This document shows positions 1 to 3,612 of a stretch of DNA of 19,779 bases, in pieces (position 1 is the stretch's first letter; each line of letters opens with the position of its first letter). Source of the DNA: an archaeon. GTDB taxonomy: Archaea > SpSt-1190 > DYHY01. The stretch lies in contig JBBIPP010000016.1 of assembly GCA_037442745.1 (NCBI GenBank), positions 1-19,779 on the forward strand, written 5' to 3'. The translations under genes were made by a program, and so were the position numbers. The notes beneath the pieces were generated by a model, which was given only the letters and a program-made list of their open reading frames with translations, ran no database searches and had not been told where the DNA came from.

Positions 1-291
1 CATAGTATTTAGAATAGTGCTTGGAGAATCCCGTCCCGTCAATATAGAGGCGGCGACTCGCCTTTTTCCGGAACGAGCGTTCCGTTGTCTGGACAAGGTA
101 GAAGAGGTGGGCGTTGTTGGAATAGATTTTGTTCGAGAACCGGGAATTTCTCTCCGGGATGCACCCCTGCTTTCAATAAATACTTCCTGAACAGGTTAAA
201 CAAAGGTTTGTTTGTCACAAAATGAACAAATATCCGGGGCTCTGGCCGGATATTCCTTTCAGTCATTTTCTAGGAGGGTTTCAACAGTCCC
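1..291 (-). mobile_element. IS5-family insertion sequence, left end plus degraded transposase 5' part, running off the window start
   Basis: The minus strand begins GGGACTGTTGAAACCCTCC at 291. Positions 199-291 match the reverse complement of 19687-19779 at 89/93 nt. A transposase-like reading frame follows. An internal 9-bp inverted repeat AATATCCGG/CCGGATATT lies at ~229-254. Confidence 0.8.
2..218 (-). pseudogene. IS5-family DDE transposase N-terminal remnant (frameshift plus internal deletion)
   Basis: The first frame reads VTNKPLFNLFRKYLLKAG. After a shift at ~163 it reads IPERNSRFSNKIYSNNAHLFYLVQTTERSFRKKASRRLYIDGTGFSKHYSKYY. IDGTGF..SKYY resembles the first catalytic Asp motif (IDxTGF) of archaeal IS5 transposases. 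The helical segment usually found between the S..Y motif and IDxTG appears deleted. Confidence 0.7.
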
Positions 292-300
292 TATAACTAT

Positions 301-935
301 TGCATTTATAATTGCCAAGATGAAGTGAATGTTTCCTCTAGATTCTCAACAGGAACTGTTCGTCCCAAAAATGTTACATTGTTTCCGGTTTCGTGGGGAG
401 AAATCAAATTCCTGAAAGGTGTTGCCAATATTTTCGAATTACCGGAAGAGACTGCTTTCCGGGCAGTTCTTGCGAAGAAACTGACGCAAGGCGCCCTGCC
501 CCGGGAGGATAACTAGATCCGAAAGGGAGCTATTGGGAGCTTCTCTGGAAATTGGCAGGAATTTACGGAAAAAATTCGTTGGTTCTCGCCCAAAGGAAGT
601 TTTATTGGGCGCTCGGGACCTATCTCTTTGTCCCTGAAGCTGAACTGAGCTTCCGGGCACATGATGTTGCGTCCGGCAATTTGGCTCTTGGGAGGGGGCT
701 TTCGGTTCCCGAGATCGAACATCTTGTCAGCAACATCCGGGGCAACGCCACAAGGGAACTGACTGCAAAAGCAGGAGGAGCAAAAATAATGAATCTGCCT
801 CCGGAGCAATTGTTCGAAAAATACGTCTTTCCTGTCTCTTCGCCGTCTATAGAATCTGAATTAATCAGAAAAATTGATGGCGTATGCCCCTCATCGGACT
901 CGGGAAAGAGCCCTCAGAGCAGTTTTGCTTGCTTG
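301..935 (+). pseudogene. Possible remnant of an unknown gene, 5'-truncated by the IS
   Basis: A protein-like frame at 301-516 ends in TAG. A protein-like sequence continues in another frame (ORF 552-1082: LAGIYGKNSLVLAQRKFYWALGTYLF...). No recognisable family. The 3' boundary is uncertain. Confidence 0.3.
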
Positions 936-1680
936 CCTCCGAGTTGTCTAGGCTCGAAGGTCTTTGTCTCGTTCTTTTTGTTTTTTGTTTCTGATGCCGA
1001 CAAAAGGGCTTGTCCAAACGCCAAATGGCCAAATCCCTCTTGCATGCATTTTCTCAGGGCGTCTGACATGCAGGCAGATTGAGACTGCCCGTTTCCGGTT
1101 GCCCGGACATTCAGGTCCCCTTTTCTTTTCCTGTTTTTTCTCTTTTTTTCTTGTCTTTCATACAGGGGTGTGTCAGGACATTTGTCCCGACAATTGCGGC
1201 GAAAGCGCATCCGGCCCAGTTGGCAGGAGGCTCGCCTGGAGGCTTCCTCCAATTTCTTCCTCTTTGGTTTCTTCTGCTGTATTTGAATGAAAATGAATGT
1301 GAAAATTGTGTGCTACAGCCCCCGGGAAGAAAGTTTGGTTTTTATTGGGGGTTTGGGGGCTAGCTTTTTGGCTAGTTTGAGAATATATCCTCCCGGGGGG
1401 TTTTTCTTTTGCAGCGGTCGAAAGCCGGCCTGATATTGGTAGACAGGCCTTCCAATTTGGGTTTACGCCCGTTTGGGCTTGGGGGTGGCTAGAAGATTGG
1501 AAGAAAATCTTGGAAAGGCTGCCCTTGATTGTCCCATAAACAAGCCGGCTTTTTGACTGTGAATTGATCATTTTGATTTTTTTCCGTTTTTTGTTTTGTT
1601 TGGTTTTCTTTTTGTTTTAATTGTTGGAAAAGAGAGGGAGGGGCAGACTCCTGCCGGCCGCGCTCCCTGTTGCTCTTTTC
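896..1680 (-). ncRNA. Candidate large structured RNA or 3' UTR downstream of ftsZ
   Basis: Many complementary stems: 1627-1646/1651-1680, 1421-1432/1541-1552, 1319-1329/1389-1399, 1171-1179/1184-1192, 1094-1107 (GCAA tetraloop on minus), 1072-1090, 1001-1008/1035-1042, 913-919/937-943 and 896-913. Most imperfect pairs are G-U on the minus strand and A-C on the plus strand. Confidence 0.5.
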
Positions 1681-1731
1681 GCTTGTTTGTCCGTCGTTAC
1701 TCTCCCGTTGTTCGTGTGTGTCTGTGTAACT

Positions 1732-2799
1732 TTACGCAAGCACAGGGATTCCCAAGTGGTTCGCTGTCTGCTTCGTCCGTATTGACGTTTCCTTCGGGCT
1801 CACTGCTCCGAGGATGTGGGGTGACTTTACCCCAGTTATTATCGTCATTACGCGGATAGAGCCTTCGAGCGCAGGGTCAATCCTCGCGCCCCAGATTACC
1901 GAGGCTCCGGGGTCCATGTCCTTTGCAACGAGGTCTCCGATTGTGTTGACCTCGTCCAGAGTCATGTCCGGCCCTCCGACAACATGCACCATTGCGCCTG
2001 TCGCGCCCTTGTAGTCAACATCGAGCAAGGGGTTCGAGAGCGCCTTCCTGACGGATTCCTCCGCCCTGTTCTCGCTTGTCGATTCCCCGACTCCGATTAC
2101 CGCGACTCCGCCGTTCGACATAACTGCTTTCACGTCTGCATAGTCCAGGTTGACCAGGCTCGGTACTGCGATTGTCTCGACAATTCCCTTGATCATTGTT
2201 GCAATCAGCTCGTCTGCAACCGCGAATGCTTGCGCAATCGGGAGCTTGCCTGCAACCTCAACCAGCCGGTTGTTGTCAATTACAATTACCGTGTCAGTCA
2301 TCTGCCTGAGCTCATAGAGCCCGGCTTCCGCCTTGAAAATCCTTGCCCGTTCCATCTTGAAGGGCATTGTCACAACGCCAATCACAATCGAGCCTTGCTC
2401 CTTTGCGAGCTGAGCAACTACCGGAGCGCTTCCGGTTCCTGTTCCTCCGCCCATCCCTGCAGTGACAAAAACGAGGTCGCAGTTCCGAAGAGAATCTTTT
2501 ATGTCGTTCCTCGCTTCCTCTGCTGCAGCCCTTCCGACTTCTGGATACCCGCCCGCGCCAAGACCTTTTGTAAGGTCACGGCCGATTAGTATCTTCTTGT
2601 CAGCTTCTCTTGCATCAAGGTGGAGCTTGTCAGTGTTCAAAGCAACAACTGTAGCTCCCTGAATGCCCAGACGGTATAGTCTGTCAGCGGTATTGTTTCC
2701 GGCTCCTCCACAGCCAACTACCACTATCCTGGCTTGGCCGACTTCAAAGTCAGCCCCAGGTCTTGCCACGCTTGCCGCACTCTGTAGGACATAGTCCAT
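1732..2799 (-). CDS. ftsZ: Cell division GTPase FtsZ (archaeal FtsZ2-like)
   Basis: Motifs [26 protein letters not shown] (tubulin signature) and T7 loop [10 protein letters not shown] (the Tyr form is typical of FtsZ2). The ATG at 2799 is preferred because SD GGGGTGA lies at 2814-2808; the alternative start is GTG at 2811. Confidence 0.97.
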
Positions 2800-2807
2800 T
2801 TTTTTCT

Positions 2808-3110
2808 TCACCCCGTCATTTCTTTGTTATGGCACTTTTCTGGAACTTTTCTCCCCAATCAGGGGCCCCAAAGGACCCGAGCAAGGGAAGACTTGCTTCA
2901 GAGTGCCGAAATGACTATATACTCGGGATAGCCATAGCTGTCCCAAGAAATTCAAAAAAAATTGAACCTTACCAGTTCAAGAAAATAGAATTTCAACTAA
3001 GACAGACGGAAAGGATACCAGACCAGCTGAGTTTACCAGACTCGCCGGGACACACAAAAACCGTTACCAGCGGATTTGTGCGCAGACTGTACCTATTTCT
3101 CTTTCCGCTT
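2808..3110 (-). promoter_or_regulatory. Candidate structured 5' leader of ftsZ, including the SD site
   Basis: No ORF on the ftsZ strand. Nested stems lie across the whole region. TTACCAG (CUGGUAA on minus) sits at hairpin apices 2969-2975, 3033-3039 and 3064-3070. Stem 2815-2822/2908-2915 abuts the SD. Confidence 0.6.
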
Positions 3111-3283: not shown

Positions 3284-3612
3284 ATGTTCCAAAGGGGGAA
3301 CTCTATTGAGATTGTTTGCGGAGCGCTCGTTTTCAACAAGAGCGGAAAAATTCTCCTCTTGAAATATCCCAAATTGAAAGGGCTGATAAAAGTTCCCGGA
3401 GGTTGTATTGATTTCTGGGAAAAATATCTGACACATTCGTGAGAGAGGTTTTCGAGGAGACTGGCTTTCGGGCAAAGCCGGGGAAGCCTCTTGAATTCGG
3501 AGAAAGCCTGCTGAGCAAGAAATATAGAAATGGGGGAAGGCACCTCGTTTTTCTCAACTATTACTGCTAAGTTGGAAGAAGGGAGCCAACACCCTCGCTA
3601 AACGACAAGGCA
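3284..3612 (+). pseudogene. NUDIX hydrolase pseudogene
   Basis: ATG at 3284 gives MFQRGNSIEIVCGALVFNKSGKILLLK...VPGGCIDFWEK. A frameshift occurs in the A-run at ~3420, followed by SDTFVREVFEETG (Nudix box) ...HLVFLNYYC and an in-frame TAA at 3568. TATA-like TTTATA lies ~25 nt upstream. Confidence 0.85.

Follow-up and report, generated by a model that had tools for sequence, protein, structure and literature searches.

What occupies the long gap behind the cell division gene ftsZ in a small archaeal genome? Long conserved structured non-coding RNAs (ncRNAs) are rare in archaea, and one would be unexpected in an otherwise tightly packed genome of 1.1 Mb. The window analysed here is the entire 19,779-base contig (C16) of an archaeal genome bin of 1.14 Mb in 20 contigs, whose host we label a DPANN-type archaeon. 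On its minus strand lies ftsZ (1732..2811; Pfam Tubulin/FtsZ GTPase domain, E 3.6e-47; FtsZ_C, E 4.8e-36), and 862 nt separate its stop codon (1732-1734) from the stop codon of a convergent gene. An earlier note, made from the letters alone, had placed a densely structured tract at 896..1731 and taken it for a large ncRNA or giant 3' untranslated region (UTR) co-transcribed with ftsZ. The structured tract was indeed found, within slightly wider limits (870..1731, in ftsZ sense). Its end is set at ~870 because the intact 276-codon convergent open reading frame (ORF) of L097, a metagenome contig carrying a relative of this locus, ends at the equivalent of ~865. We find that the tract is non-coding and, judged by comparison with relatives, that parts of it are under strong purifying selection which does not act on a protein. 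The best explanation, to which we give a probability of about 0.55, would be a lineage-specific, multi-domain structured RNA that forms a co-transcribed 3' extension of the ftsZ message.

Coding potential and folding of the tract

Of six ORFs scanned in the tract or overlapping it, none reaches a Pfam family cut-off, ORF 914-1252 giving two weak matches below it. The earlier note had named protein-coding conservation of this ORF and of ORF 1173-1571 as an alternative, which the substitutions between the window and L097 contradict. These are spread evenly over codon positions 1, 2 and 3 (13/12/14 in ORF 914-1252 and 15/19/11 in ORF 1173-1571). The ratio of non-synonymous to synonymous divergence (pN/pS) is 0.59 for ORF 914-1252, which contains a stop in the L097 copy, and 1.37 for ORF 1173-1571, the other two frames of which give lower values of 0.73 and 0.63. 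The 132-codon product of the latter has no homologue of 72-231 residues in a collection of 5.8 billion protein clusters. The tract is non-coding.

The same note had proposed an Rfam scan, which came back empty. With the covariance models of Rfam 15, the whole window had no match at the gathering score, and even at E up to 1 there were 0 matches in 38,263 bases, both strands, of the five loci L001 and L013-L016 (this locus and those of four relatives); the tract matches no described RNA family. No tRNA was found in the window, and RNase P RNA and signal recognition particle (SRP) RNA are encoded elsewhere in the genome (C8:15619-15922 and C14:3269-3553, respectively). A known repeat or miniature inverted-repeat transposable element (MITE), raised as a further alternative, did not hold either: when window positions 1-1731 were compared with the 1.14-Mb genome by blastn, positions 300-1731 matched only themselves, and the tract is single-copy. 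A second tract of this kind was not found among 12 inspected of 34 merged regions from a genome scan with A/C-skewed 400-nt windows, which instead gave low-complexity coding regions, N gaps and a CRISPR array. A regular expression for two C-tracts gave 228 matches genome-wide, too noisy for use.

Stable folding is a property of the ftsZ strand. Compared with 20 dinucleotide shuffles, the minus strand of 896-1731 reached -247.4 kcal/mol against -213.8 +/- 3.9 (z -8.7; none of the 20 as good), whereas the plus strand was matched or beaten by 8 of 20 shuffles (z -0.27). Together with a sense-strand composition of A 0.35, C 0.26, G 0.21 and U 0.17, this bears out the strand asymmetry described earlier, and every helix that had been named was recovered in the minimum free energy (MFE) structure at its coordinates. 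The sense strands of the corresponding tracts in L097 and in G001, a genome of the same genus, have z scores of -6.9 and -4.5. Paired bases in the local fold are 59% G+C, and unpaired bases are 52% A and 35% G+C; across the tracts, 42-53% of unpaired positions are A. Such A-rich unpaired positions are typical of structured RNAs. The polarity of G.U pairs toward the ftsZ strand was likewise seen, with 15 G.U pairs and zero 1x1 A.C mismatches in helices of at least 5 bp, a count that is weaker than it looks since the folding program favours G.U by construction. In this model the tract would fold into at least seven local G+C-rich domains with A-rich single strands between them.

Read from the ftsZ stop codon, and with all coordinates on the minus strand, the predicted domains begin with D1, a long interrupted hairpin of the MFE structure at 1627..1680. 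At its base GAAAAGAG (1673-1680) pairs with CUCUUUUC (1627-1634), and its conserved tip is a GGCCGGC-AGGN-GCCGGCC hairpin (1642-1659). All four genomes of the lineage (the window, L097, G001 and G003) have the 7-bp stem of this tip; depending on the genome, one of its pairs is C-G or G-C and another is G.U or G-C, the C-G to G-C switch repairing a C.U mismatch of the window. An A-rich single-stranded linker follows (1558..1626), which changes at a neutral-like rate (the window and L097 are 0.60-0.72 identical here and 0.77 at the four-fold sites of ftsZ); the conserved AAAAUGAUCAAUUCACAGUC (1555-1574) forms its end. D2 (1413..1560) is closed by a 12-bp stem (1541-1552/1421-1432); it has further stems inside and a large loop with a C-tract, in which lies the 8-mer CCACCCCC (1481..1488), a hallmark of the ftsZ 3' region in the clade. 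D3 (1312..1415), again from the MFE structure, has an 11-bp stem (1389-1399/1319-1329) that closes a loop with CCCCCAAACCCCC (1347-1359).

Beyond D3 comes the most conserved block of the tract (1041..1280). It takes in the D4 hairpins, including one of 9 bp at 1172-1191, the anchor CACCCCUGU (1162-1170), which is kept in 4/4 genomes, and most of the D5 multiloop, with a GNRA hairpin UCCGG-GCAA-CCGGA at 1094-1107 and a further hairpin at 1073-1090. Terminal hairpins of the MFE structure (896..960), a fast-diverging part that is 35% different between the window and L097, stand just before 869..873, where the ftsZ strand has its first U5 run downstream of the stop codon; this run is a candidate for the 3' end of the transcript.

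Conservation in close and more distant relatives

Comparison with the regions downstream of ftsZ in relatives, another suggestion of the earlier note, showed that the tract is kept in 4/4 lineage genomes at a length of 810-940 nt and with common anchors. FtsZ identity to the window is 99.7% for L097, 97% for G001 and 96% for G003. Besides the D1 tip hairpin, the anchors common to the four tracts are CUAGCCACCCCCAA, CACCCCUGU..A.AGACA, and AAAUGA.CAAUUC.CAGUC followed by a long CCGG-rich stem. A DNA search with the tract in 41 genomes (its own and those of 40 relatives) returned only itself and one 27-nt match (E 8e-4).

At 199 four-fold sites of ftsZ the window and L097 are 76.9% identical (23.1% different), and against that yardstick the tract changes slowly, with differences at 127 of 776 aligned sites (16.4%; binomial P 2e-6 versus 23.1%). 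Within it, 1041-1280 differs at 15 of 221 sites (6.8%; binomial P 8e-11) and 1421-1500 at 3 of 65 sites; the A-rich linkers and the 3' end are 28-35% different. The conserved blocks were chosen after the profile had been seen, and the P values survive correction for ~40 windows. Among the four genomes ftsZ four-fold sites are saturated (identity 0.36-0.52, and 0.36 with G003), yet the anchors persist to G003. It is because the blocks are better kept than four-fold sites, and because the anchors outlast saturation, that we take parts of the tract to be selected.

Conservation of the fold can be followed best in D2. RNAalifold on the four genomes gave 25 pairs, six of them with changes on both sides. 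The named structure of 20 pairs has 91% of its cells paired, and sliding the partners lowers this to 30-60%; both sides have changed in four of its pairs. Its covariation score is 0.275, that of the shuffles 0.198 on average, and 12 of 500 shuffles reached 0.275, all this with four sequences only. A D3-like stem closing a C-tract loop occurs at the same place in the window, L097, G001 and G003, and in the MAFFT alignment, which is poor there, 3 of 10 of its pairs changed on both sides. When the local helices of at least 5 bp in the window (137 pairs) were compared with L097, 93 pairs were unchanged, 8 were kept through a single change and 5 through a double change. Four sequences, or about three independent lineages, are too few for power of the R-scape type, and on these alignments the conservation of structure in D1-D3 appears real but modest.

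Relatives with less similar FtsZ have shorter versions after ftsZ, of ~270 nt in G002 (FtsZ 82% identical to the window), ~150 nt in L098 (80%) and ~140 nt in G004 (73%), in which a long stem closes a C-tract loop and U-runs come after. In L098 (L098:3715-4060) the stem/C-loop element and a double U6 terminator are followed by ~330 nt more of A-rich, hairpin-bearing non-coding sequence and then a gene. At loci with FtsZ 66-74% identical, only 60-110 nt lead from the ftsZ stop to the U-run, with a nearly invariant C-tract element, e.g. CCGUCCCGACCCACCCCCAGAGGGCC. A triple C-tract pattern within 200 nt of the stop was present at 10 of 16 such loci and at 0 of 139 distant ones (background 0.003 per 200 nt). 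Among 22 loci whose FtsZ is at least 66% identical, 13, the window among them, have the 8-mer CCACCCCC in sense orientation no more than 950 nt from the ftsZ stop; the 22 include three near-duplicates and one locus that lacks downstream DNA. The 8-mer is found at 2 of the 139 distant loci, and elsewhere there are 16 matches in 1.18 Mb. R2, a profile of 12 short elements, was searched in the genomes of five relatives; every one (5/5) gave a single significant match, which lies at ftsZ. Common descent of the short and long forms is plausible, given the shared 8-mer and its position.

The short form has features of its own. Relatives L020-L028 and L099-L104 carry a small hairpin, CUCCU(U/C)...(A/G)AGGAG, with the ftsZ stop codon in its loop, and in the RNAalifold structure of the short-form relatives a helix GUCCC/GAGGGC around the C-tract competes with a U-run-proximal hairpin, AGAGGGCC/GGCCCUCU; as modelled, these competing helices could possibly act as a switch. 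Pairing of the C-tracts with the start of the message was considered and rejected. As a mimic of the anti-Shine-Dalgarno sequence they fail in the short form, where the Shine-Dalgarno (SD) sequence of ftsZ is of the GGGAGGG type and not complementary to CCCACCCC. In the long form, ftsZ ranks 220th of 903 genes when ribosome-binding regions are compared for pairing with the C-tract loops. Duplexes between leader and tract (5'-3') reach z scores of only -0.55 to -1.7 versus shuffles.

Transcription and rival explanations

No conserved promoter word or U5 run divides the tract from ftsZ. Promoter-type 7-mers (the TTTAAA/TTATAA family, enriched upstream of genes here) occur twice in the window's tract, at tract positions 115 and 391, and 0 times in the tracts of L097, G001 and G003. 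Sense runs of at least five U number one in the window (869-873, tract position 862), two in L097, none in the 939 nt of G001 and one in G003 (U7, position 824). The sense strand is A-rich, and therefore the opposite strand has T runs of at least five, 11, 12, 8 and 3 of them in the same order. In Methanococcus, U-tracts set termination efficiency together with aCPSF1 (Li et al. 2021, eLife, PMC8716108). Because neither a conserved promoter word nor a U5 run stands between gene and tract, a co-transcribed 3' extension is the best reading. On the simplest reading of these sequences, polymerase coming from ftsZ would read through the tract and polymerase coming from the convergent gene would be stopped quickly. 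One contig from an RNA library runs 54 nt past an ftsZ stop into A/C-rich sequence, for which DNA carry-over is possible; DNA runs X3 and X4 contain an L097-like variant.

How might such an extension work? Transcription would start at the TATA-like box upstream of ftsZ (2915-2922, minus strand), and RNA polymerase would pass the ftsZ stop, since no strong U-tract terminator follows it, and continue for ~860 nt to the first U5 run at 869-873. The RNA would then fold, and large loops of the neighbouring domains D2 and D3 would display the C-tracts CCACCCCC and CCCCCAAACCCCC. The ftsZ message may be protected by its stable hairpins against 3'-to-5' decay, and the C-tract loops may dock a trans factor, for example a G-rich RNA or an RNA-binding protein of the KH type, that determines the amount of FtsZ. 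KH-domain proteins are the classic readers of C-tracts in eukaryotes. This genome has two KH_1 loci and one NusA-type KH_5 locus. Both the co-transcription and the function, be it message stability or factor docking, we infer from sequence.

The claim of a large ncRNA or giant 3' UTR co-transcribed with ftsZ thus stands in part. The tract is non-coding, its position and, in part, its sequence and structure are kept in four genomes, it holds constrained blocks, and no conserved promoter or U5 run separates it from the gene. The covariation is modest, in four sequences, and more of the changed predicted pairs are broken than kept between the window and L097.

Several observations indeed speak against a conserved, co-transcribed RNA. 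The G003 tract folds no better than its own shuffles (z -1.3). Among the 137 helix pairs of the window compared with L097, 17 are broken and 14 gapped, and of the 30 changed pairs 13 are kept and 17 broken; for the pairs of the global MFE structure the figures are 37 broken and 20 kept. Paired and unpaired sites change nearly alike between the two (14.6% and 17.2%), and in G001 and G003 the anchor and one hairpin are all of the distal half that can be aligned. Model R1, which represents D2 and matches 1413-1560, recovers only its four training sequences over 28 sources (two other matches have E 4.7 and 9.9), and R2 fails on the long tracts, with a best E of 0.44 in D3 of G003. L097 has an internal U6 at tract position 229 and a U5 at 684, and the window has a U4 at tract position 104, right after D1, where part of the transcripts may end. 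RNA runs X7 and X8, two sediment metatranscriptomes, cover only ftsZ coding pieces of relatives, a result that by itself decides nothing for or against. In addition, a frame that begins at an AUG of conserved position stays open for 132, 118, 130 and 141 codons in the window, L097, G001 and G003, respectively.

That ORF would encode a small, fast-evolving, low-complexity protein of 118-141 residues from an AUG ~160-200 nt after ftsZ (1173-1571 in the window), and we regard such a product as highly improbable. The frame is open in 4/4 genomes, the indels between the window and L097 (15, 1+11, 3 and 12 nt) preserve it and a common stop ends both copies. On the other side, its own frame has the highest pN/pS of the three and no codon position is spared, no Pfam family or protein-cluster homologue was found, and no SD lies at a working distance. 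Our low rating follows from two further points: the four products are not collinear, the common SHP being translated from CCACCCCC, which lies in D2 of the window and in D3 of G001; and U-poor sequence keeps frames open in any case. Read-through of the ftsZ stop codon was rejected, the in-frame extensions (80 codons in the window, 53 in L097) running over D1 in different frames. We think it just as improbable that the tract acts as DNA, be it as an oligo-T terminator wall against convergent transcription, as a quadruplex-prone G-rich template or as a chromosomal site. The antisense T runs in the four genomes would suit such a role, as would the antisense strand of the short form, which reads as four G-tracts. 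However, a terminator wall needs no 860 nt, GC-rich helices or conserved 220-nt blocks, and the counts of G.U versus A.C favour the ftsZ strand as the folded strand.

Better candidates, though still unlikely, are a free RNA and a largely functionless spacer. The tract may be a separate trans-acting ncRNA, cut from ftsZ read-through or transcribed from its own weak promoter, that acts as a scaffold or a sponge for G-rich sequences (GGGGG-type ribosome-binding sites, for example). Its size, modular GC-rich domains, A-rich linkers and conserved blocks fit a free RNA equally well, GGGGG runs at many translation-start regions pair strongly with the C-tract loops, and two promoter-like 7-mers lie inside the window's tract. 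However, neither word recurs in L097, G001 or G003, and that linkage to ftsZ stays so tight throughout the clade points to a function in cis; no specific pairing target stands out, because even the ftsZ start region ranks only 220th of 903 for loop pairing. A somewhat smaller chance goes to a mostly non-functional spacer with accumulated palindromes, in which a small ancestral C-tract element would be functional and the blocks shared with L097 would reflect recent ancestry or recombination. The similar divergence of paired and unpaired sites, the many predicted pairs broken in L097 and a distal half hardly alignable with G001 and G003 would be expected of such a spacer, related genomes have only 60-270 nt there, and the window holds other decayed DNA, namely a broken convergent gene and a broken NUDIX gene. 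Set against this, a 1.1-Mb genome retains 810-940 nt in four genomes with saturated ftsZ four-fold sites, 6.8% divergence over 221 sites stands beside 28-35% in adjoining linkers, and sense z scores of -4.5 to -8.7 in three genomes are unexpected for drift.

The co-transcribed extension remains the reading that we prefer. If the tract is transcribed with ftsZ, it would be an example of a short 3' element expanding about tenfold within one lineage. A bolder and doubtful idea is that a short ancient C-tract element at the ftsZ 3' end grew, in a small DPANN-type clade, into an RNA machine of ~0.85 kb, attached to the message or cut from it, whose loops would recruit a partner and couple FtsZ synthesis to the cell cycle or the host-attached state. 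Were this true, the tract would be an archaeal counterpart of the large orphan ncRNAs of bacteria, tied to cell division.

The surrounding locus and comparison with known systems

The window's ftsZ is one of two copies in the genome, the other being a paralogue on contig C2 that is 52% identical and directly followed by putative secE and nusG/spt5 genes. The true start of the window copy is likely the ATG at 2797-2799, with an SD-like GGGGUGA at 2808-2814 (minus strand), and no cdrS-like ORF lies upstream of ftsZ here. The leader (2797-2922, minus strand) is itself strongly structured (z -4.4, 200 shuffles). From the TATA-like GUAUAUAG to the SD-like GGGGUGA it is kept in the window, L097, G001 and G003; the 5' arm of its closing stem may or may not be within the transcript. 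Genome-wide, purine runs of the GGGGG type, 5-12 nt before the start codon, replace GGAGG at many genes, despite a 16S rRNA 3' end of the usual ...GAUCACCUCCU.

On the far side of the tract, window positions 1-300 hold a repeat of ~290 bp that recurs with 85-100% identity at or near many contig ends (C2, C3, C5, C6, C7, C11, C12, C14, C17, C19, C20 and the far end of C16) and probably represents an insertion sequence or MITE at which the assembly breaks. The convergent gene (330-862, plus strand), which is intact in L097 and has no Pfam family, is truncated by this repeat in the window, where it also has a stop at 514-516 and a frame shift at its end. The window copy is 64% identical to that of L097, with 58 gaps, beside an adjoining ftsZ that is 94% identical, and is probably a pseudogene. 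Upstream of ftsZ, a NUDIX-like gene (3284-3570, plus strand) is split by a frameshift near 3440 into two overlapping ORFs, the second of which scores 16.7 bits, below the Pfam NUDIX cut-off of 21.1. Elsewhere in the genome, at a contig end (G000:C9:64451-65050), 36-nt direct repeats ending in ...AAUUUCUACUAUUGUAGAU form a CRISPR-like array; they may resemble Cas12a-type repeats.

Which known systems does the tract resemble? To our knowledge, the archaeal 3' UTRs so far described are tens to a few hundred nucleotides long. In keeping with U-tract/aCPSF1 termination (PMC8716108), the end of the tract transcript would be set by oligo-U, and the tract has no strong sense U-tracts until its end, which is what read-through by RNA polymerase would call for; it differs in that it would be ~860 nt long, multi-domain and partly constrained in sequence. 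With large bacterial ncRNAs such as OLE, GOLLD, HEARO, ROOL and raiA it has in common a size of 0.5-1 kb, GC-rich helices, A-rich joins and a narrow spread, but it lacks an Rfam match, belongs to an archaeal host, is fixed 3' of one gene and shows far weaker covariation.

The display of C-tracts recalls eukaryotic C-rich 3' UTR elements, of which the alpha-globin stability element is an example. Such elements are bound by poly(C)-binding KH proteins (PMC9701828) and share with the tract several C-tracts, short A-rich or purine spacers and a single-stranded 3' UTR context. By analogy, a KH protein that binds the C-tracts and stabilises or silences the ftsZ message is a plausible working model, although here there are only KH-domain genes, whose presence is no proof of binding. 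Among archaeal KH proteins, aCPSF1 has KH domains for which binding to U-tracts, not C-tracts, was shown (PMC8716108), and NusA is described as made of KH domains and RNA-binding (PMC8116511).

FtsZ dosage is tightly regulated in both bacteria and archaea, in E. coli by DicF, a trans-acting small RNA on the 5' region. In Haloferax, CdrS, a DNA-binding protein encoded upstream, acts on ftsZ2 (PMC8406309). Neither is a long structured 3' extension, and the portions available to us of the literature on archaeal structured RNAs, ftsZ UTRs and termination held no description of such an element. The post-transcriptional setting of FtsZ levels in archaea is largely unexplored, and the tract, if co-transcribed, would offer a concrete, testable element, with defined domains and a loop motif, CCACCCCC. 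Structured 3' UTRs and ncRNAs are known as a kind; what is new here is the length, the modular display of C-tracts, the attachment to ftsZ and the host lineage.

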